Shown: positions 1-8,414 of the stretch, one piece after another
Layout of the letters: each line of letters begins with the position of its first letter
Position numbering within the stretch: position 1 is the stretch's first letter
Sequence record: PP514360
Source: Escherichia phage HK1
Length of the DNA stretch: 44,319 bases
Strand: one strand, 5' to 3'
Position numbers and translations under genes: made by a program
Notes under the pieces: generated by a model
Databases searched by the model: none
What the model saw: the letters and a program-made list of their open reading frames with translations, nothing else
What the model was told of the DNA's origin: nothing

Positions 1-1
1 T

Positions 2-577
2 TTAGTTTGAGTTTTCCCAGTCCATTTTGCGCCGAACCAGCGGGCTTTCGTAATATTCCTTTCCTTCCACTTCCACCAGGGGCCAATCGTTCACTATCAC
101 GTATGGCTCCGCAATATCCTCAATCACGCCGATGGCGCTATGCTGCCCGAACGACACCCCCACCAGAATAACACCGGCAACCCGACGAGTGAGATACTCG
201 CGAGCGCAACGTGCCTCTACCAGTCCGCGACGGATGCCGCTGGTGGCCTTAACCTCGTAGGTCCAGACGGCATCAATCATATGTTCGCGGAAGTCGGGAC
301 CGGATTTTACCTTGCGCTTGCCGACCATGATAATATCGCCGCGGTCGATAGTGTTAGCGCTAAACAGGCCGGTACGCATTAGCAAACCTTGCGGGATACA
401 GCTACGCCCACCCGCCTGCCCTTCGAGGTACATTCCTGCAAACATTTCGCCCAGCACACCGACGAGTCTGCTTTGCTTGCACGCGTCAGACTTGTATCGC
501 CACTGTTCAAACTCGATGCTTGCAATCATTGCCGCCAAGTGGAATTGTTTACCGGTTATTTCGTATTCGCCGTACAT
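2..577 (-). CDS. hypothetical protein (191 aa)
   Basis: Complete minus-strand ORF with GGAGGG Shine-Dalgarno ~8 nt upstream of the ATG at 577; same orientation as neighbouring replication-module genes. No motif recognised. Confidence 0.55.
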   Translation of the reverse strand: MYGEYEITGKQFHLAAMIASIEFEQWRYKSDACKQSRLVGVLGEMFAGMYLEGQAGGRSCIPQGLLMRTGLFSANTIDRGDIIMVGKRKVKSGPDFREHMIDAVWTYEVKATSGIRRGLVEARCAREYLTRRVAGVILVGVSFGQHSAIGVIEDIAEPYVIVNDWPLVEVEGKEYYESPLVRRKMDWENSN

Positions 578-619
578 CGTGTGGCCCTCCTTGATGCGGG
601 CCGAAGCCCGCGATTAGAA

Positions 620-1174
620 TTATTTAAGTGCGCTAGTCACCAGTGTTTTTTCCATGTTACGGAAATCTTCCGGCGTCATGAGGATTTTAGATCCGTCTTC
701 ACCAGTGAGCACGACCATAGGCCGGACGTCCTGGGCTTCAACTCCAAAATCGCGGGCCTTAACCGTCTTGCCGAACGAGGCTACCGTGTCCTCTGCAACG
801 CGAATTGCGCTGTTATACGCATTAATCTCGCCGTCCAGGAGCACGGACAGACCTTTGAGGCTGTCGAATTGTGCTGCCGTTGTATCGATCTGAATCTCGT
901 CATGCACGGTCATGTAAGACTCGCCCAGCAGGGCGGCATACGCCACCAGGTCCACGATGTTATCTTCCTGGTGCTTACGGTGCTGGCGCACCAGCTTCAG
1001 GCAGATCAGGAAGGTCCAGGCTTCTTGCTCGGTAAGGTCGCGCCCGGTAAGCGCGTTAAACACGGCGGCGACCTGTTTAGCGCTGCGTTCTTCTTTCGCG
1101 TTGTCATAGCCGTTTTCTTTCCCGCGCTGTTCCATAGTGGTAGCGGCGTTTTTGCAGTATTCGTATGCTTTCAC
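620..1174 (-). CDS. hypothetical protein (184 aa), probable GTG start
   Basis: ORF MKAYEYCKN...; first codon at 1174 is GTG with AAAGGG upstream; sigma70-like promoter (TTGCAA-18-TATAGT) at 1221-1250 on the same strand. Confidence 0.5.
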   Translation of the reverse strand: MKAYEYCKNAATTMEQRGKENGYDNAKEERSAKQVAAVFNALTGRDLTEQEAWTFLICLKLVRQHRKHQEDNIVDLVAYAALLGESYMTVHDEIQIDTTAAQFDSLKGLSVLLDGEINAYNSAIRVAEDTVASFGKTVKARDFGVEAQDVRPMVVLTGEDGSKILMTPEDFRNMEKTLVTSALK

Positions 1175-1220
1175 AGTATCACCCTTTTAGTGAGGGGGCG
1201 GTATTGCCCCCGACACGTGT

Positions 1221-1250
1221 ACTATAGTGAAACCAACCTATTGGTTGCAA
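1221..1250 (-). promoter_or_regulatory. sigma70-like promoter with TTGGTTGCA motif
   Basis: Minus strand TTGCAA-18 nt-TATAGT; the -35 is embedded in the AACCAAcctaTTGGTTGCAA inverted repeat; upstream of the gene starting at 1174. Confidence 0.4.
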
Positions 1251-1708
1251 GTGAATTTTGCGACGTTTATTGCGTAAATTTTCGGGACCAAATCACCACA
1301 CGCCCGACGAATTGCCGCGATGTTCTTCTCGCAATCTTCAATGATGACCAGTTCAGACACGTCCGCGTAGCAGACCATTTTGAACACGGCGCACGCCTTA
1401 AACTCTGGCGGCGGGGTGTCGTCCAGCATGTGGCGCATAAACAACCTGCCTACCGGGAAGACCTTCAATTGCTCGGCGGTGGTGTCCCAGCATTCGCGCT
1501 GCCGGTTGGTCAGATACGCGATCTCGAAGCCTTGCTCTTTATACATGCGCAGTAGCGGCAGCATATCCATGTTAAGGTCTTCGCGGACGTGCGCTTTGTG
1601 CCACTTCGCCCAAAAGGTGGATTTCGTTTTTATCCCCGGCACCAGGTCGGCACGCGCATCGCTTGAACCGTTAATAACGCCATCCAGATCACAAATCAGT
1701 AGTTTCAT
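1238..1708 (-). CDS. HAD-superfamily hydrolase-like protein (possible nucleotidase/phosphatase)
   Basis: N-terminal LLICDLDGVI matches HAD motif I (DxDG); GAGGAA SD upstream of ATG at 1708; 156 aa. Confidence 0.65.
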   Translation of the reverse strand: MKLLICDLDGVINGSSDARADLVPGIKTKSTFWAKWHKAHVREDLNMDMLPLLRMYKEQGFEIAYLTNRQRECWDTTAEQLKVFPVGRLFMRHMLDDTPPPEFKACAVFKMVCYADVSELVIIEDCEKNIAAIRRACGDLVPKIYAINVAKFTCNQ

Positions 1709-1929
1709 TTCAATTCCTCAATCAAATTTGCACGAACAATACGGGCGGAAAACGTGTCACACACAAGATGGCAGCGGGCAGTCATTACAAGCCAGCCGGT
1801 AAGGTCCATGCCGAGTATTTGCTCCGGGCGGCTGACCCGCCGCACTTTGTTCTCCCTCGGGTTAATTTGGTAGCGTTTAACAATTTCGTCCACGACGCGC
1901 AGACTGCGATCAACGATTAAGATATTCAT
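1705..1929 (-). CDS. small hypothetical protein (~74 aa)
   Basis: ORF MNILIVDRS...; ATG at 1929 overlaps the 3' end of the upstream methyltransferase gene; stop overlaps the start of the HAD gene (ATGA). Confidence 0.4.
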   Translation of the reverse strand: MNILIVDRSLRVVDEIVKRYQINPRENKVRRVSRPEQILGMDLTGWLVMTARCHLVCDTFSARIVRANLIEELK

Positions 1930-2395
1930 GTAGCTCACTCTCGCTCATTATTTCAATTTGTGCGCTGCCGGTGGGCGGCGCTTCGTCAAAGATTATTAAT
2001 TGCTGGCACTTGTTATTGCTCGGCCCGACTTCACCGGTGACGGCATGTATAAATCGGATCCGCCAGTCCAGAAGAATTATCAGGTTTGCAGTCTTCCGGG
2101 CCAGCTTCGCCCACTTCGTCGACGTGTCCTGATTCAGTAGCATGACGGTCCGGCGTCCGTGCGCTGCGCACTTAACCCACGGCAGCGGATCGGAATACGG
2201 CGGGTTGCACCACTTCCACCCTTTCAACTCTGACCAGTCCGCATCGAGCGCGCTGTGCTCCGCCGTGAAGTAACGCGGTAGCAGGTGGTTGGCATCGCTC
2301 GCCGCCATGTCATAACGGAATCGGTACTTCCGGCGCAGCGGTTTAAATAAAGCTGGCGGCGTGCGCCAGCTATCTTTTTGCTCACTCTTCTTCAT
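1910..2395 (-). CDS. DNA N6-adenine methyltransferase (phage Dam-like)
   Basis: Contains WCNPPYS (the NPPY catalytic motif of amino-methyltransferases) and an N-terminal SWRTPP stretch; 161 aa. Confidence 0.7.
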   Translation of the reverse strand: MKKSEQKDSWRTPPALFKPLRRKYRFRYDMAASDANHLLPRYFTAEHSALDADWSELKGWKWCNPPYSDPLPWVKCAAHGRRTVMLLNQDTSTKWAKLARKTANLIILLDWRIRFIHAVTGEVGPSNNKCQQLIIFDEAPPTGSAQIEIMSESELHEYLNR

Positions 2396-2846
2396 GGTCG
2401 GTGTCTATCGCATACAGGGCGATTTTATTGCCGGTTTTGAGAATGCGTTGCACGCGCTTTGATTCCTCGGCAATAAGCGGGCGCGCGTCCGGGTAGATGC
2501 TGCCGTTTGTAGGGTTGCGCCACGCCATGAGCACAAGGTCTTTCCGGGCGATCGAAGACTGGCGGCCCTTCGGACGCACGTACTCCTCCGCACGTTTACA
2601 GTGCTCACGCAAACTATCGGCAGTGATGCGGTTTAGTGCAACGCTGGTGGTGTATCCGGTGCGCTGCATAATCCCCATCAATTCGAATAGCAGTTCGAAG
2701 CGCTCCTCTAACTCCATGCGACGCTTTTCTTCCGTTTCATAACCTGACCGGAAGATTTCGGCCGATTGTTTCGCGTTGGCCGTTTGCTCGCGGGCTTCGA
2801 GGCATTGCGCGGCCCAGTAATTTTTCTCTTCTTGTAAAATTTTCAT
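2382..2846 (-). CDS. hypothetical protein (154 aa)
   Basis: ORF with GGAGA SD ~10 nt upstream of ATG at 2846; preceded by promoter TTGCAT-17-TATATT (2894-2922) carrying two ATTGGTTGCA motifs. Confidence 0.55.
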   Translation of the reverse strand: MKILQEEKNYWAAQCLEAREQTANAKQSAEIFRSGYETEEKRRMELEERFELLFELMGIMQRTGYTTSVALNRITADSLREHCKRAEEYVRPKGRQSSIARKDLVLMAWRNPTNGSIYPDARPLIAEESKRVQRILKTGNKIALYAIDTDHEEE

Positions 2847-2893
2847 CGTGTTGTCTCCAGGTATTAAAAAGGGCGTCCAAACCGGACACCCTC

Positions 2894-2927
2894 AATATAA
2901 TGCAACCAATATGATTATGCAACCAAT
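2894..2927 (-). promoter_or_regulatory. sigma70-like promoter with two ATTGGTTGCAT copies
   Basis: Minus strand TTGCAT-17 nt-TATATT; a second ATTGGTTGCAT fills the spacer; ~50 nt upstream of the ATG at 2846. Confidence 0.45.
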
Positions 2928-3251
2928 TTACGCATAAAAGTTTGGGTCGCGCGCTACGTCTACCAGATACAGATTGCTGATCCGGTTGCCGTAGTGCCCT
3001 GGCGTGCGCTGGCGGCACACAACGGCGAAGCCTGGGGGGATTGTATTGCCCGTCTCAATAATCCACGCCACGCGTGCGCCAGACAGCGTCTTACCGTTGT
3101 ATTCGATACGTGTTCCGCCATCGGCAGTGTTAAGGTTGCCAATCTTGCAGCCTGTGGACTTCAGGCGAATGACGCCGGTCTTGCTGTCGTAGGAAAAAAG
3201 CTGATTGGTCATTGCCACTGAAAAGTCGATGGCGTCGAATGTAGTATTCAT
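2928..3251 (-). CDS. HNH-family homing endonuclease-like protein (NUMOD4/HNH_3-like)
   Basis: LFSYDSKTGVIR resembles the NUMOD4 motif and GHYGNRISNLYLV resembles the NNRxSNL core of HNH_3 endonucleases; GAGGAAAA SD upstream of ATG at 3251. Canonical first His not obvious, so may be degenerate. Confidence 0.45.
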   Translation of the reverse strand: MNTTFDAIDFSVAMTNQLFSYDSKTGVIRLKSTGCKIGNLNTADGGTRIEYNGKTLSGARVAWIIETGNTIPPGFAVVCRQRTPGHYGNRISNLYLVDVARDPNFYA

Positions 3252-3943
3252 TTTAAATTTTCCTCGTTAACCGCTATCGCGAAGCCGCGCGGGGTGAGTG
3301 AGCGGATTAATTTTGTACGAGCGGATTTACCACCGAGGCGACTATACTGTTTCGAGTACCCTTTTTCAACGAAAACAGGTTTCTTCTCTGGCATACGGAA
3401 GCCGTTGCCGGTCCATAAGCAGGTCAGCTTCGGATATGAATCGCGGGCGTTGATGTATTCAGGGAATAACGGGTGTACGTCATCCTCTGGCAAATAGCCG
3501 CCATACTCCCACGGGTCAAACGAGTGGTCCGGCCTACGCCATTGAGTGGAGAGCACGCTGCGCGGATTCTCAATCATATACGGCACTTCAAAGAAATCAC
3601 CCAGGTAAGCGGCGATCTTCGCGGTGCGTACCGCCTTAAGCTGGAAGGCAGGGTCGCGGGCGCGTTTGCGCGGGAAAGCTGGCGCACCGCTAACCGCCAG
3701 ATCCGTACACGGCGGGAATGCATAAATGATATCCGGCGTGCCGAAATCACCATTCATCGCGCGGTCCACGAAGTCCAGGTCGATAAACTCATTGCGATAG
3801 CGAATGCCGCGACCATAGATCCGGTAGTCCAGGTATGACCCGTGATCGGCCTCGGAGTAGTTGAAGCAATAACACTTATGCCCCATCTCGGCAGCACGTT
3901 CAATCATCAAGCCGCTGCCGTCAAATAATGACCAGATAATCAT
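3248..3943 (-). CDS. short DNA (cytosine-5)-methyltransferase-like protein
   Basis: LFDGSG (motif I, FxGxG), PPCTDLAVSG (motif IV, PC) and MIENPRS (motif VI, ENV-like) appear in the canonical order; only 231 aa, shorter than typical C5-MTases. Confidence 0.5.
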   Translation of the reverse strand: MIIWSLFDGSGLMIERAAEMGHKCYCFNYSEADHGSYLDYRIYGRGIRYRNEFIDLDFVDRAMNGDFGTPDIIYAFPPCTDLAVSGAPAFPRKRARDPAFQLKAVRTAKIAAYLGDFFEVPYMIENPRSVLSTQWRRPDHSFDPWEYGGYLPEDDVHPLFPEYINARDSYPKLTCLWTGNGFRMPEKKPVFVEKGYSKQYSRLGGKSARTKLIRSLTPRGFAIAVNEENLK

Positions 3944-5364
3944 TTGCGCGCCTTTTTTGCTTTCATGTATTCCATTAAATCGTCCTGAATGTCTCGCTTA
4001 CTGTCGCGACGCTCCGCGACCAGTTCGTCCAGTGTGCCGCGCGCCTGGATAATGTAGACGAATACAGGACGAGGGTGTCCGGCTTGCATCTGACGAACTG
4101 GCCCGATACGCTCCACGATCTGCGAAAAATGCTCATAGTTCCAGGTGTCGGAGAAGATGGCAAGGTGGTGTCCTCCATCCTGCAAGTTAAGGCCGTGACC
4201 CGCCGATGCCGGGTGTGCGAACATGATGGGGATCTCGCCCCTGTTCCACGCTTCCATGTCCTTATTGCCTTGCTTACCCTTACCCATCGCTACGCCGTGC
4301 GGGAATTTCTTCTTGAGACGCGCCAGGTCATGCTTGTACTGGTACGCGACGAGCAACGGTGCGCCGTTCAACTCCTCCACGATACTTTCCAGCGCGTCCA
4401 GTTTAGCGTCGTGAATTTTCACCCATTCGTCGGTGCGCTCGCCGTCTTCGTCGACTTTATATACGGCCCCGGAAGCAAGCTGAAGGCACTTAATAGTCTT
4501 CGACGCGGCGTTAGCCGCCTCCACTGTTCCGCTTTCCAGTTCTGCAAATAGCTCCGCTTCGAACTGGTCATAAATCTTGCGGGCTTTCTTCGGCAGGTCC
4601 ACAACAACCGGCGTATAGATTGGCTTGTCGCATCCGAAGTATTCAGCCGCGTCAACGGTGAGCGATACGTCAGACAGGCGTTGTTGTATTTCTTTCTCGG
4701 AGTTCTTGAGCGGGGCGTGTTGCATAGTGAAGCTGCCAGGCTTAACAGGCTTGCTAATAAACCAGCGGTCTGTGAATGCCTTATAACTACTGCCGAGGCG
4801 TTCGCCACCGTCGACAAACCACGTCTGACCCCATAGGTCTTTCAGTCCGTTTGGTGCGGGTGTGCCGGTAAGGTTAATCCAGCGCTTGACGCGCTTATGT
4901 GCGATCGCCGCCAGGGCGCGGGCGCGCTTACTTCCCTGCTTGCTGCGGTAGCCTTTCAGCTTAGTGGATTCATCGGCAACAACGACCGTAAAGGGCCACT
5001 CGTCGCCGCAATAGTCAACCAGCCACTCAACCACATCATAGTTAACACAAACCACGTTAGCGTCGCTCTCAAGCGCAGCGATGCGGTCCTTCTCTGACCC
5101 GGTGCCGTCTACTACCAGCAGGGCGGGGAAGCGCCATTTTTCTTGTTCCGGGGGCCATGTGCCCGATGCAACGCGCAGCGGGGCAAGCACCAGTACGCGG
5201 TCCTCCTGGTTGGACAGGATGCCGGTCTGGAACATTTTATTCAGCGCCCACATGGTCGCGCCGGTTTTACCCGACCCCATTGTCGCCCAAATATTGCAGC
5301 GCTTATGCTTGAGGATGAACGCGGTTATCAACTTCTGATATTCGCGACGTCGGAAACGTGCCAT
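3940..5364 (-). CDS. SNF2/DEAD-like superfamily-2 DNA helicase
   Basis: Walker A ATMGSGKTG, DExx-like VVVADEST, motif III LTGTPAPN and a C-terminal helicase domain. Start placed at MARFRRREYQ (ATG 5364) just after the stop of the upstream gene; the track ORF extends to 5454 but overlaps that gene. Confidence 0.8.
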   Translation of the reverse strand: MARFRRREYQKLITAFILKHKRCNIWATMGSGKTGATMWALNKMFQTGILSNQEDRVLVLAPLRVASGTWPPEQEKWRFPALLVVDGTGSEKDRIAALESDANVVCVNYDVVEWLVDYCGDEWPFTVVVADESTKLKGYRSKQGSKRARALAAIAHKRVKRWINLTGTPAPNGLKDLWGQTWFVDGGERLGSSYKAFTDRWFISKPVKPGSFTMQHAPLKNSEKEIQQRLSDVSLTVDAAEYFGCDKPIYTPVVVDLPKKARKIYDQFEAELFAELESGTVEAANAASKTIKCLQLASGAVYKVDEDGERTDEWVKIHDAKLDALESIVEELNGAPLLVAYQYKHDLARLKKKFPHGVAMGKGKQGNKDMEAWNRGEIPIMFAHPASAGHGLNLQDGGHHLAIFSDTWNYEHFSQIVERIGPVRQMQAGHPRPVFVYIIQARGTLDELVAERRDSKRDIQDDLMEYMKAKKARK

Positions 5365-5368
5365 ATCT

Positions 5369-5587
5369 TTATTCCGCCTTTTTCCAGACTTCGGTTTCAC
5401 TGTTCCAATTCCTCTTTGTGGCGTAATAGTATGGGTCGTGCTCAAGGTGCACACCGGTAGCGCGGAAGCTCTGGAACTTTTGCCAGCACACGGTCAGCGG
5501 CAGCGGTTTAGCCATTCCTGAAGTAAACCATACGCGATCGCCCGGTTTGCATTCGCCCAGCTTGGTGAGTCGGTAATGTTCTTTCAT
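5369..5587 (-). CDS. small hypothetical protein (~72 aa)
   Basis: ORF MKEHYRLTKLGECKPGDR...; GGGAGA ~7 nt upstream of ATG at 5587; terminator-like hairpin immediately upstream (5601-5623). Confidence 0.45.
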   Translation of the reverse strand: MKEHYRLTKLGECKPGDRVWFTSGMAKPLPLTVCWQKFQSFRATGVHLEHDPYYYATKRNWNSETEVWKKAE

Positions 5588-5600
5588 CGTCATGTCTCCC

Positions 5601-5623
5601 AAAAATGGCGGGACAAGCCCGCC
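5601..5623 (-). terminator. intrinsic terminator/attenuator-like hairpin
   Basis: Minus-strand GGCGGG-cttgt-CCCGCC followed by AUUUUUG, between the zinc-ribbon gene and the next gene. Confidence 0.4.
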
Positions 5624-5630
5624 GTATTAA

Positions 5631-5804
5631 TTATTTTTGCTCTGCGCGGTAGCGGCGCTGCCGTTCGCGCTCTTTTTTATTGCGGCACGATTTGCACTCT
5701 GCCCGATACCCGTCCGGGCTTCGCGCAGTCTTACCGGTGTATTTATGGAACTGGGATAGCGGTTTAACGCAGCCGCAATTACTGCAACGTTTTTCTTCAA
5801 TCAT
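5631..5804 (-). CDS. small zinc-ribbon protein with basic C-terminal tail (candidate transcription factor)
   Basis: MIEEKRCSNCGC...AECKSCRNKKERERQRRYRAEQK: CxxC...CxxC arrangement plus Arg/Lys tail; GAGG SD upstream of ATG at 5804; promoter TTGCTG-17-TATAGT at 5836-5864. The longer track ORF start at 5876 lies within the promoter motif. Confidence 0.5.
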   Translation of the reverse strand: MIEEKRCSNCGCVKPLSQFHKYTGKTARSPDGYRAECKSCRNKKERERQRRYRAEQK

Positions 5805-5835
5805 CTCTAAAATCCTCGATATGGCTAACCGGCAC

Positions 5836-5870
5836 ACTATACCGCTACGCGACCAATTCAGCAACCAATA
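5836..5870 (-). promoter_or_regulatory. sigma70-like promoter with ATTGGTTGC motif
   Basis: Minus strand ATTTATTGGTTGCTG; TTGCTG-17 nt-TATAGT; upstream of the zinc-ribbon gene. Confidence 0.45.
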
Positions 5871-6123
5871 AATCACAGTCGGCTATGCTGTCGATAACGC
5901 GAACGTCCGCACCGCGGCGGGCCATTCGCTCATGTTCTCGTACCTGGTGCGGCTTAGGTTTACCGCCTGGGCGCTTCACTTCGACGAAAACTATCTTGCC
6001 GTTGATGATGATAATCAGATCGGGCGCACCTGCGCGCCCCTCCCAAGCCACTTTGCGGCAGAATCCGCCGACGGCTTTCACCCGTCTCATCAAGTGACTT
6101 TGGATCTTGCCTTCTGGTGTCAT
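5845..6123 (-). CDS. VRR-NUC domain nuclease
   Basis: GAPDLIIIINGKIVFVEVKRPGGKPKPHQ matches the VRR-NUC core; ATG at 6123 overlaps the DNA polymerase stop (TAATG). Confidence 0.65.
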   Translation of the reverse strand: MTPEGKIQSHLMRRVKAVGGFCRKVAWEGRAGAPDLIIIINGKIVFVEVKRPGGKPKPHQVREHERMARRGADVRVIDSIADCDLLVAELVA

Positions 6124-8414
6124 TATTTCCTGTACCTGTACATAATGTCGCCTTCCGCGGCAAGCGGGAAGCCTTTCGCCCAAACCGGCAGGTCGCACAT
6201 CAGCGCGCACAACTCCTCGGTTGTGTAGTCGTCGGTATCCGGCACTTCGGTTATCAGTTCATCGTGTACGGACAGTACGATCTCATACCCCGCAGCTTCA
6301 ACGCCCGGCATGGACCATGCGAGGATATCGCGGCACAGCGCCTGCACGATGTTTTCCGTCAGTTTACCGCCGTAGGTATACTGGAATCCCCACTGGCGCG
6401 TCGTCTGATTCTCGCCCTGATATTTAATGCGTGTGCTGGTGCGCTTCTTGCCGGTGTCTTCGTCGATCTCGGTCGTCACTGACAGCGCAATGCCTGGATA
6501 ACTCATAATACGCCCCGACGGCAACTCAATTTTCAACCACCACCCCGCGGCGTTCGGGTCGTCGCGTTCCTCGTCGAAGGTTGGGTCATGCTTCGCCTTC
6601 GTGCGGACTATCTTGAGCGCTTTCTTACCATCCGGGCGAACGTTCGCGCCAGCCCAGTACGCTTTGCCAGGATTGCGGATTGCACACAACACCGCGTCTT
6701 CAAGCTCGGCCCAAAAGGCTACCGTCTTCGGGTGAGCCTCGCGCCACATGCGTTTAATCGCATCACACGTAAGCCATACGTTTTTCGGCAGTATGTAAGT
6801 CGGGCGCTCGTCCTTCTTGCCCGGCTTCGGCGGTCGCTTCGCTTCGTTAATGCGGGCGTACTCATAACCACGTTTCGCCGCCGCCCAAATGTGATCGGGG
6901 AATGTGCCCTTCATCACGTCAGCCATCGCATAAAGGTCGAGGCCCAGGTTTTTAGCGAACTGCAAGAACGCAGCTACGCCGCCGCCATAGCCAAGTCCCA
7001 ACTCACACGCCTTACCAATCTGGCGTAGATCTTTGCGGTTGGCTTTAATGTATTCCGGGTCAAGGCCGAACATCTTACCGGCAGTTTCACAATAAATATC
7101 GCGACCGGCCCTAAACACCATTAGCGCGGTTTTCTCGCCCGCGGTCCAGGCAAGGCCGCGCCCTTCCACGTTGGAGTAGTCCGCGACGACAAACTTCTTG
7201 CCCTTCGCCGGAATAATGCACCCGCGAACGGTCGAGGCCGTTAGCTTCGATATGTCATACGCCCAGTGTGCGGTCCCGCGTAACAGGGAGTTTATGCCGT
7301 TGGTGAGCATGTGCGACCGCACCCAAAACGCGACGTCGCTCTCGCCTTCACGGCGTTTAATCTTCCCTTCGTGGTCATCGCTATACTCGCCGCGTGCCAG
7401 GTTTTGAGGCTGAAAGCCTTTACCGGCCCAGCGTAGCGTGCGCTTTGCGCCGCCATACTGGAGACAACCACGGCGGCGACCATCGGCGGATAGGCCATTA
7501 ACGAGCGGATTGTACTTAGTCGACGCCGTGGATGACGCACCGAGGCGCATCTCTATAAGCACTTTGCCCTCGTCCGGGAAGTCTGGATCTTCTAGCAGGT
7601 CGTTAAGCGTGGATTTCTGCGCGTTGTGGATTGTGAACGCAGGCGCGAGGTCGCGCAGCGCTGGCAGGAAGTCATTTCCGGTTAGCTTACCGCCGAAGCG
7701 CTCCCAGGCTTCTTCCTTTAATTCTTCCTTATGCGCCTGTACCGCTTTGATCGCAGCGCGTGCCAGGTCAACGTCCACATAGAAGCCGCGGTCGTTAATC
7801 AACTGGTCAATAAGCAGGATTTCGTCTTCCTTCGGCGTATTACCCCAGTCCGGTATGCGCCAATAGACTTCCCTCATCGCGATGATATCCAGCGCGGCAT
7901 AGCGCAGGAATTTAGCCCATTCTTCAGGGTGAGTCTCGCGGGTGTAGCGGCGGATTTTGTAGGTCTTAGGGGTTGGCTTACAGAATCGTTTGATCAGCGC
8001 CTTGCCAGCCTTATCCTTCGCGTGTTCTGCGTCAACGCCAAGCACCTGGCACTGCATGTCGAGACTACCCGGCAGCGCGTGTCGGAAGGCCATAATCATG
8101 GTGTCTTCGATCTGGCACACTGGCAGGTCAATGCCCCACTTCTCGCGAATAACCAGGCGGTCAAACAGGAGGCCGTTAGCCATCACGATTTTTGCTTTCT
8201 TGCGGGATACCTGGCGGAGCGCCTTGCGCAGTTCACGTGGCATTGTGGGGGACTCGGTGCAATCCCATGTCTGCACGCGGCCCTCGTCGATGGCGTAGGT
8301 GCAAATCATAATCTCGGTGGTTGGGTGCTCTGCGTAGGCGTATGCGCCAACTTTCTTCAGGTCTACCCCGCTAAATGTCTCGGTATCGAGAAACAGGCGT
8401 TCGAAGTCTTTCAT
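6123..8414 (-). CDS. family-A DNA polymerase with N-terminal 3'-5' exonuclease domain
   Basis: 763 aa; FLDTETFSG (exo I), DYSNVEGRGLA (pol motif A, DYSQIELR-like), KACELGLGYGGG (motif B), LSVHDELITE (motif C). Confidence 0.9.
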   Translation of the reverse strand: MKDFERLFLDTETFSGVDLKKVGAYAYAEHPTTEIMICTYAIDEGRVQTWDCTESPTMPRELRKALRQVSRKKAKIVMANGLLFDRLVIREKWGIDLPVCQIEDTMIMAFRHALPGSLDMQCQVLGVDAEHAKDKAGKALIKRFCKPTPKTYKIRRYTRETHPEEWAKFLRYAALDIIAMREVYWRIPDWGNTPKEDEILLIDQLINDRGFYVDVDLARAAIKAVQAHKEELKEEAWERFGGKLTGNDFLPALRDLAPAFTIHNAQKSTLNDLLEDPDFPDEGKVLIEMRLGASSTASTKYNPLVNGLSADGRRRGCLQYGGAKRTLRWAGKGFQPQNLARGEYSDDHEGKIKRREGESDVAFWVRSHMLTNGINSLLRGTAHWAYDISKLTASTVRGCIIPAKGKKFVVADYSNVEGRGLAWTAGEKTALMVFRAGRDIYCETAGKMFGLDPEYIKANRKDLRQIGKACELGLGYGGGVAAFLQFAKNLGLDLYAMADVMKGTFPDHIWAAAKRGYEYARINEAKRPPKPGKKDERPTYILPKNVWLTCDAIKRMWREAHPKTVAFWAELEDAVLCAIRNPGKAYWAGANVRPDGKKALKIVRTKAKHDPTFDEERDDPNAAGWWLKIELPSGRIMSYPGIALSVTTEIDEDTGKKRTSTRIKYQGENQTTRQWGFQYTYGGKLTENIVQALCRDILAWSMPGVEAAGYEIVLSVHDELITEVPDTDDYTTEELCALMCDLPVWAKGFPLAAEGDIMYRYRK

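Follow-up and report, generated by a model that had tools for sequence, protein, structure and literature searches.

What does a phage gain from a cluster in which a short protein with the motifs of a DNA C5-cytosine methyltransferase (C5-MTase) is encoded next to an HNH-like protein, with a Dam-type methyltransferase (MTase) nearby, and are these proteins working enzymes or remnants? The cluster in question lies in the genome of Escherichia phage HK1 (sequence record PP514360), the 44,319 nucleotides of which are referred to below as the window; coordinates are collected in Table 1. The sequence-only reading of this DNA had described three open reading frames (ORFs) as a DNA-modification island, in which the cytosine enzyme was too short and possibly inactive, and the HNH-like gene looked like a homing-endonuclease insertion. 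All three ORFs were recovered at the positions it had proposed, and its motif calls hold in all three proteins (NPPY in the one of 161 amino acids (aa); motifs I, IV and VI in the 231-aa one). The observation is therefore confirmed; the interpretation that was put on it is partly supported. We consider that the locus is probably a conserved part of the Dhillonvirus early/replication operon that serves methylation, with an active minimal C5-MTase, a Dam and a domesticated HNH relic.

The block is an ordinary, already annotated methylation block of Dhillonvirus which is present in about 150 GenBank phages. A megablast search with positions 1500-5500 of the window matched 159 phage records, nearly all from Dhillonvirus coliphages; in 150 of the 159 the match extends over 80% or more of the query and the gene annotations agree, and the nearest is Escherichia phage B2 (94.3% nucleotide identity). 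In the matching records the helicase gene is labelled 'DNA helicase', the 231-aa gene 'putative DNA cytosine methyltransferase C5' or 'Dcm-like C5 cytosine methyltransferase', the 107-aa gene 'putative HNH / homing endonuclease' ('putative homing endonuclease' in BASEL records), the 154-aa gene 'DNA ligase' or 'hypothetical' and the 161-aa gene 'DNA N-6-adenine methyltransferase'.

The compact C5-methyltransferase

The 231-aa protein carries motif I (F7-D-G9-S-G11), motif IV (P77-P78-C79, where C79 is the catalytic Cys) and motif VI (E125-N126-P127). The catalytic residues C79 and E125, and also K172, are unchanged across 58 diverse family members, and the same alignment has G86, P127, P144, Y170, T174, W177 and P185 as further invariant residues. 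Motif I is looser across the family: its consensus is SLFDxTG and only L6 is at least 90% conserved. The sequence-only reading had suggested that a target-recognition domain (TRD) and motifs VIII-X be looked for, with a mixed outcome. A motif IX/X-like stretch, IRSLTPRGFAIAV, is present at residues 213-225. A TRD of normal size is missing, and only ~35 residues (181-213), variable in length and sequence across the family, take its place. A motif VIII-like strand was found (Y170-P-K172-L-T174-C-L-W177, in which Y, K, T and W are invariant), but it reads Y-x-K-x-T and not Q-x-R-x-R; the Lys may here replace the Arg. Set against the classical C5-MTases (M.HhaI, M.HaeIII, E. coli Dcm; PF00145), the protein thus shares motif I, the Pro-Cys of motif IV and the Glu of motif VI, but it is shorter by ~100 aa or more, in addition to its reduced TRD and divergent motif VIII.

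Database searches gave a strong match to phrog_757 'DNA methyltransferase' (E 9.8e-82, residues 1-229) and none in Pfam, NCBIfam or PADLOC. For PF00145 in particular, no match was obtained at E <= 0.1, and a search of PDB sequences returned a chance match only. At the family level, PF00145 matches 9 of the 58 members, weakly (best E 3e-4), and the family profile barely detects M.HaeIII (E 1.1); both results are weak points of an assignment to the C5-MTases. Since sequence profiles barely link the family to the classical enzymes, a comparison of folds was needed. The predicted structure is confident (predicted local distance difference test score, pLDDT, 93.9; predicted TM-score, pTM, 0.91) and has a class I S-adenosylmethionine (SAM)-methyltransferase fold, the nearest structural neighbours of which are C5-MTases. 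Its best structural matches are DNA enzymes, namely DNMT3B, the prophage MTase 3g7u and M.HhaI. The catalytic domains of DNMT3A and DNMT3B differ from the phage protein in being eukaryotic, CpG-specific and part of large multidomain proteins in DNMT3L-containing oligomers, and the sequence identity is 13-16%. Judged on the model and on the motifs, the fold and motifs I, IV and VI are those of a DNA C5-MTase, as the sequence-only reading had proposed from the motifs.

The family to which this protein belongs comprises 2277 clusters at 90% identity and 794 at 50%, and 1509 phage records carry a homologue. Its hosts include Escherichia, Klebsiella, Salmonella and Vibrio, and its phage types include Drexlerviridae, Guernseyvirinae, and T4-like and other large myoviruses. 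Among the top 150 representatives listed, lengths are mostly ~210-260 aa, so that short length is the norm of the family.

The compact C5-MTase is the least obvious component of the block, and it already has a characterised homologue. A preprint on retron Ec86 (Eco1) describes escapers of K42, a Drexlerviridae phage similar to KarlJaspers (Bas06): all four (4/4) had lesions in a 711-bp dcm gene, which was toxic when expressed alone only if the retron was present (10.1101/2023.08.16.553469). In the same work K42 Dcm alone raised the level of 5-methylcytosine (5mC) on the multicopy single-stranded DNA (msDNA) of Ec86, as measured by mass spectrometry coupled to liquid chromatography (LC-MS), a C82A/E128A/K175A/K176A mutant did not, and defence was abolished by changing the CCTGG motif of the msDNA (10.1101/2023.08.16.553469). 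The K42 Dcm/retron result is restated in two later peer-reviewed articles (PMC12916289 and PMC12640716). In KarlJaspers (MZ501090) the corresponding 711-bp gene is bas06_0055, annotated as 'Dcm-like C5 cytosine methyltransferase', and the 231-aa protein is 53% identical to its product over the full length (E 4e-86). Residues C82, E128 and K175 of K42 Dcm align with C79, E125 and K172, and the spacings from C to E and from E to K (46 and 47 residues) are identical in the two proteins. The identity and the aligned residues together place the window protein in a family with a demonstrated active representative. The K42/KarlJaspers and Dhillonvirus proteins are of similar size (236 vs 231 aa), and both are encoded by orphan early-region genes of small E. 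coli siphoviruses. They differ in phage group (Drexlerviridae vs Dhillonvirus) and in that K42-type phages have no HNH-like gene beside dcm. K42 Dcm is the trigger of retron Eco1 (Ec86).

Is the 231-aa protein nevertheless an inactive, decaying or truncated enzyme? Its length, ~100 aa below that of classical enzymes, and the lack of a Pfam or NCBIfam match would agree with a pseudo-enzyme, and broken alleles do occur in nature (a 39-aa deletion and a 10-bp frameshift, described below). Against this stand the length typical of the family, the invariance of C79 and E125 in all 58 members, a ratio of non-synonymous to synonymous substitution rates (dN/dS) of ~0.05 among intact alleles, the confident model of a complete C5-MTase fold and the activity of the K42 homologue in vivo. 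We therefore regard a pseudo-enzyme as most improbable, and the earlier description of the protein as truncated, too short and perhaps inactive does not stand. On this analysis the protein is probably active and complete, not truncated, and probably works without a partner.

Two broken alleles were seen among the relatives. In TheodorHerzl (Bas14; 2026-2604 of sequence L009), an in-frame deletion of 39 aa between two 'GF' repeats removes the mini-TRD and motif IX, and in a metagenomic Dhillonvirus (2262-2947 of sequence L013) a 10-bp deletion shifts the frame, the product being the representative of a 24-sequence cluster. Both phages retain an intact HNH-like gene. Such natural alleles are similar to the lesions reported in K42 phages that had escaped the retron. 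Selection on intact alleles and the existence of broken ones, taken together, indicate that the MTase gene is a selected but dispensable accessory gene, and it is plausible that its loss is driven by methylation-sensing defences. For another Dhillonvirus, 'phage98', escape from retron Eco7 has been traced to mutations in a gene that is not named and has no assigned function, and expressing it triggers that retron (PMC12640716); this gene may or may not lie in the methylation block.

As to the site that is methylated, several points weigh against a simple transfer from K42 Dcm. The CCWGG assignment in K42 is itself indirect, as it comes from mutation of the msDNA motif, and the work was done in dcm+ MG1655, where msDNA from the empty-vector control had little 5mC (10.1101/2023.08.16.553469). 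The latter suggests that the phage enzyme is not simply copying host Dcm. In addition, the presumed recognition segment (residues 182-201) is strongly different from that of the K42/KarlJaspers protein, and the enzyme may therefore have a target other than CCWGG. The literature search turned up no study of any Dhillonvirus methyltransferase, either by methylome or by biochemistry, and for this phage both activity and specificity are extrapolated.

These points lend some weight to the view that the C5-MTase fold serves another substrate or cofactor, such as RNA or tRNA m5C (like DNMT2) or carboxy-SAM (Cx-SAM; like the phage carboxymethyl-transferase CmoX), or that a DNA site other than CCWGG is recognised, or that specificity is relaxed. 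The Y-x-K-x-T form of motif VIII, a TRD of ~35 residues, the dissimilarity of segment 182-201 to K42 Dcm and the fact that host Dcm in MG1655 apparently does not mimic the phage enzyme would all be in line with it. On the other hand, the K42 homologue gave 5mC by LC-MS, its effect hinged on the CCTGG of the msDNA, and DNA enzymes are the best structural matches. For the Cx-SAM idea in particular, no CmoA-like synthase turned up among the ORFs screened from 1 to 8414, although no search aimed at CmoA was made. On balance this alternative is unlikely. A bolder proposal, which we also find unlikely, is that the compact ~230-aa phage C5-MTases, for which Pfam has no model, form a mechanistically distinct minimal class with a target or modified cytosine that is not that of host Dcm, that the broken alleles represent escape from defence and that the HNH-like relic is a DNA-binding accessory factor for cytosine methylation. 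A target different from that of host Dcm would account for the failure of dcm+ MG1655 to pre-trigger retron Eco1.

The HNH-like neighbour

The 107-aa protein matches phrog_99 'HNH endonuclease' (E 2.3e-16), and its fold is similar to that of an HNH endonuclease, with a resemblance to I-HmuI. Pfam HNH_3 scores 13.1 bits, under the cutoff of 24.8, and a PDB profile search with the HNH-like family gave no matches. Within that family G85, H86, Y87, R90, N93, L94 and D98 are invariant, which shows that the protein is functional, and dN/dS is 0.05-0.14.

For comparison with I-HmuI (phage SPO1, PDB 1u3e), the register was set by the predicted strands 75-79 and 94-98 and by the invariant N93-L94, which matches N87-L88 of I-HmuI; the I-HmuI sequence used was checked against phage SPO1 and is 100% identical. 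In this register D74-H75 of I-HmuI, the metal ligand and general base, fall on V78-C79, and 4 of 10 family members have Leu at position 79. Strand 94-98 is not followed by a predicted helix, whereas in I-HmuI the helix there carries the last metal ligand, N96; the 107-aa protein ends where that helix would start, and the C-terminal DNA-binding half with its helix-turn-helix is absent (107 vs 174 aa). Unlike that of I-HmuI, the gene lies outside any intron and is fixed rather than sporadic. These features suggest, with moderate confidence, that the 107-aa gene is what remains of an I-HmuI-type HNH gene, long since domesticated and encoding a selected protein, and that this protein is probably no longer a canonical HNH nuclease, nor the gene a mobile homing gene. 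Some considerations tell in the other direction. An hhalign comparison of the HNH-like family with I-HmuI was not significant (probability 0.3%) and served for the register check only, and the protein could have an unconventional active site, built for example from the invariant H86, D98 and D102. Non-canonical HNH nucleases do exist, PacI being one without the usual His.

The distribution of the gene bears on the claim of the sequence-only reading that it is a homing-endonuclease insertion. Homologues at least 80% identical occur in 157 Dhillonvirus records, where they always adjoin the C5-MTase gene; the gene is in every matching Dhillonvirus record, at a constant position, and also in relatives in which it is 58-60% identical. 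Homologues are nearly restricted to this lineage: outside Dhillonvirus records they were seen in four Edwardsiella eiAU-type phages (~40% identity), and from a large protein database only a few more relatives, 50-62% identical, were obtained. In the Guernseyvirinae phage VLCpiS11a, the helicase gene, a gene for a compact C5-MTase (64% identical) and dam are contiguous, so that the Dhillonvirus lineage seems to have gained the HNH-like and 154-aa genes by an insertion long ago. The part of the claim that concerns an old insertion is thereby borne out. The mobile element is not: the gene is fixed in 157 records, and the protein has neither the Asp-His pair nor the DNA-binding half. As an alternative, the gene could encode an active free-standing homing endonuclease and have entered between the methyltransferase genes in recent times, which would accord with the phrog_99 match, the I-HmuI-like fold, the BASEL annotation and the absence of the gene from the equivalent position in Guernseyvirinae. 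A mobile gene would be expected to be patchy, but this one is fixed at one position in 157 records and in relatives with 58-60% identity, it is under strong purifying selection, and the protein is without the Asp-His dyad, the helix of the last metal ligand and the C-terminal DNA-binding half; we consider this explanation quite unlikely.

In phage SSL-2009a (4653-4988 of sequence L001), the HNH-like gene changes frame after residue 73 and encodes 111 aa with an unrelated C-terminus. The cause is a frameshift mutation or else an error of sequencing in that older record.

A further possibility is that the C5-MTase functions together with the HNH-like protein, the two being a miniature type II restriction-modification (RM) or addiction module, or the HNH-like protein supplying the missing DNA-recognition domain. 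An ATGA overlap couples the translation of the two genes, which are adjacent in every matching Dhillonvirus record and in divergent relatives. The Edwardsiella phage eiAU-183, from the only other lineage with a homologue, also has an HNH-like gene adjoining a C5-MTase gene: at this locus (3360-5382 of sequence L005) the order of genes differs, the HNH-like protein (151 aa, 40% identity, with a weak NUMOD-like match to I-HmuI) coming after the helicase and before a canonical 330-aa C5-MTase of PF00145 type and a PF05869 Dam. Profile comparison of the compact family with this canonical C5-MTase gave no meaningful alignment, from which it follows that the two C5-MTases found beside HNH-like genes belong to different lineages; that an HNH-like gene recurs beside a C5-MTase of another lineage may be due to a link in function or just to common descent of the block. 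What speaks against a pair is that K42 Dcm works when expressed alone, that Drexlerviridae and Guernseyvirinae carry the MTase with no HNH-like neighbour, that the variants with a broken MTase (TheodorHerzl and the metagenomic genome) keep an intact HNH-like gene, although host Dcm could mask a dependence, and that the canonical Asp-His is absent and the RM models of PADLOC match neither protein. We hold a functional pair to be very improbable. Most family members are without an HNH-like neighbour, so the suggestion that the 231-aa protein needs a partner is also not upheld, and both methyltransferases appear as orphans, as the sequence-only reading had supposed, no credible restriction enzyme partner having been found.

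Dam, gene order and the replication operon

By its domain match and motif, the 161-aa protein is an ordinary, clear PF05869 phage Dam, in agreement with the amino-methyltransferase that had been proposed from the NPPY motif (residues 64-67). The PF05869 match is strong (E 2.7e-36; 125.2 bits vs a cutoff of 28.1), and phrog_111 (E 7.7e-56) and the orphan-MTase model of PADLOC (E 1.4e-11) also match. Its score against the NCBIfam equivalog TIGR01712 falls just short of the cutoff (88.4 bits vs 97.05). In a tblastn search homologues were found in 1749 phage records, including Stx-converting (36% identity) and T1-like (~30%) phages, and dN/dS among six Dhillonviruses is ~0.08. The target is presumably GATC, which we carry over from relatives. 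Two further observations concern this gene. Phage Ioannina (4679-5149 of sequence L007) has a second 'DNA N-6-adenine-methyltransferase' gene downstream of the phosphatase gene, with no equivalent in the window. At 2351-2371 of the window an 8-bp GC-rich inverted repeat, AGCTGGCG...CGCCAGCT, has a terminator-like score on both strands; it sits within the coding sequence of dam, at the 5' end and just past the overlap with the 154-aa gene, and may be due to chance.

Table 1. Features of the methylation block and the adjoining helicase gene (window coordinates)
Feature	Position	Strand	Evidence
SNF2-type replication helicase	3940..5454	-	PF00176 E 3.6e-11; phrog_62 E 4e-157; ORF coordinates
Compact Dcm-like DNA C5-cytosine methyltransferase, 231 aa (predicted)	3248..3943	-	
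107-aa HNH-like relic (putative), resembling N-terminal half of I-HmuI	2928..3251	-	
Terminator-like hairpin	2866..2893	-	sequence; RNA fold
154-aa protein, function not assigned by any search	2382..2846	-	phrog_10530 E 4.5e-86
Phage Dam-type DNA N6-adenine methyltransferase, 161 aa	1910..2395	-	PF05869, phrog_111, NPPY

The order on the - strand is DNA polymerase, VRR-NUC, helicase, C5-MTase, HNH-like protein, 154-aa protein, Dam and phosphatase (Table 1), and the order of the block is common to SSL-2009a, Ioannina, Envy, TheodorHerzl and SO-1. In two metagenomic relatives the order is helicase, MTase, HNH-like protein, a 142-147-aa protein and Dam, with the HNH-like protein only 58-60% identical. 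The stop codon of the helicase gene, which lies upstream in the same co-directional operon, overlaps the start of the C5-MTase gene by 4 nt (ATGA). The C5-MTase stop in turn overlaps the start of the HNH-like gene, also by a 4-nt ATGA, with a GAGGA Shine-Dalgarno-like sequence upstream. The methylation block is thus fused to the replication operon, a coupling through ATGA overlaps that the sequence-only reading had overlooked.

Also overlooked was the fourth gene of the block, encoding the 154-aa protein, which lies between the HNH-like gene and dam and overlaps the start of the latter by 14 nt. The protein had no match in Pfam, NCBIfam, PADLOC or PDB sequences. No other gene of the block has a dN/dS as high (~0.19), and relatives diverge greatly in the N-terminal third of the protein. 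Both RefSeq and PHROGs give it the label 'DNA ligase' (phrog_10530), one RefSeq note adding 'Possible DNA ligase but no evidence'; the label appears unsupported.

The 81-nt gap that follows the HNH-like gene (2847-2927, - strand) contains two direct copies of ATTGGTTGCAT (2917-2927 and 2900-2910), which precede a hairpin with a 10-bp stem (GAGGGUGUCC / GGACGCCCUU) and then a U-run. When the gap was folded as RNA, the centroid kept this hairpin only, but the z-score of the whole gap was only -1.58; a simple terminator scan did not list the hairpin. Judging from these sequence features, the hairpin could act as a terminator or attenuator and separate a helicase-MTase-HNH-like unit from a 154-aa-Dam unit. 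Several relatives have an extra 243-bp (80-aa) ORF at this point.

Beyond dam, two more genes on the - strand carry PHROG labels which look unreliable. The 156-aa protein encoded at 1238-1708 is labelled 'polynucleotide kinase' and matches only a HAD-type acid phosphatase domain, below the Pfam cutoff, and the 184-aa protein at 620-1174 is DUF6378, related phrogs being labelled 'phosphofructokinase'.

Restriction, retrons and the role of the block

Site frequencies were computed over the whole window. Neither GATC (173 copies; observed/expected ratio, O/E, 0.89) nor CCWGG (149 copies, O/E 0.96) is avoided. CTAG has an O/E of 0.26 and GGCC of 0.70, while CCGG and GCGC are near expectation. Several 6-bp palindromes are absent altogether: AAGCTT (16.2 expected), GCCGGC (17.7), GGGCCC (13.4), CCATGG (8.1), CCCGGG (7.9), GCATGC (8.1) and GGTACC (6.8). 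The phage thus seems to rely on site avoidance against 6-cutters, and the statistics are compatible with, but not diagnostic of, protection of short sites by methylation. Site frequency was also tried as a clue to specificity and set aside: GATC and CCWGG are neither avoided nor enriched, and E. coli Dam and Dcm confound the comparison.

In the BASEL study, no simple link was seen between phage MTase genes and resistance to restriction, as remarked for Drexlerviridae, and Dhillonvirus and Drexlerviridae were less RM-resistant than Queuovirinae (PMC8594841). Both results count against an anti-restriction role, and the protective value of the block may accordingly be narrow.

The gene identities, the fold, the conserved residues, the synteny and the purifying selection are shown by the analysis; the target sequences, the time of expression, an anti-restriction role and the loss of nuclease activity are inferred. 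The following role is proposed. The block would be co-transcribed with the replication genes, and the two orphan methyltransferases would be made alongside the replication proteins. Both enzymes would methylate newly replicated phage DNA before packaging: the PF05869 Dam would act on N6-adenine, with GATC as its most likely site, and the compact Dcm-like enzyme on C5-cytosine, with CCWGG or a related short sequence as its most likely site. Progeny would then resist restriction enzymes that these modifications block, irrespective of the host's own Dam/Dcm status. The cost would be that C5-MTase activity is sensed by retron Eco1/Ec86, which may explain the natural broken variants.

Three corrections of annotation follow from this work. 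The short cytosine methylase is not to be called truncated or inactive, the label 'HNH/homing endonuclease' on the 107-aa gene exceeds the evidence, and the label 'DNA ligase' on the 154-aa gene is without support. The interest that remains is general to the family of compact C5-MTases, with members in more than 1500 sequenced phages, and not particular to this window; it concerns the target and how DNA is recognised with almost no recognition domain. For coliphages used in therapy or in the laboratory, the phage-encoded Dam and Dcm decide which restriction systems can be evaded, and they also decide which methylation-sensing defences see the phage, as retron Eco1 does in sensing a phage Dcm.

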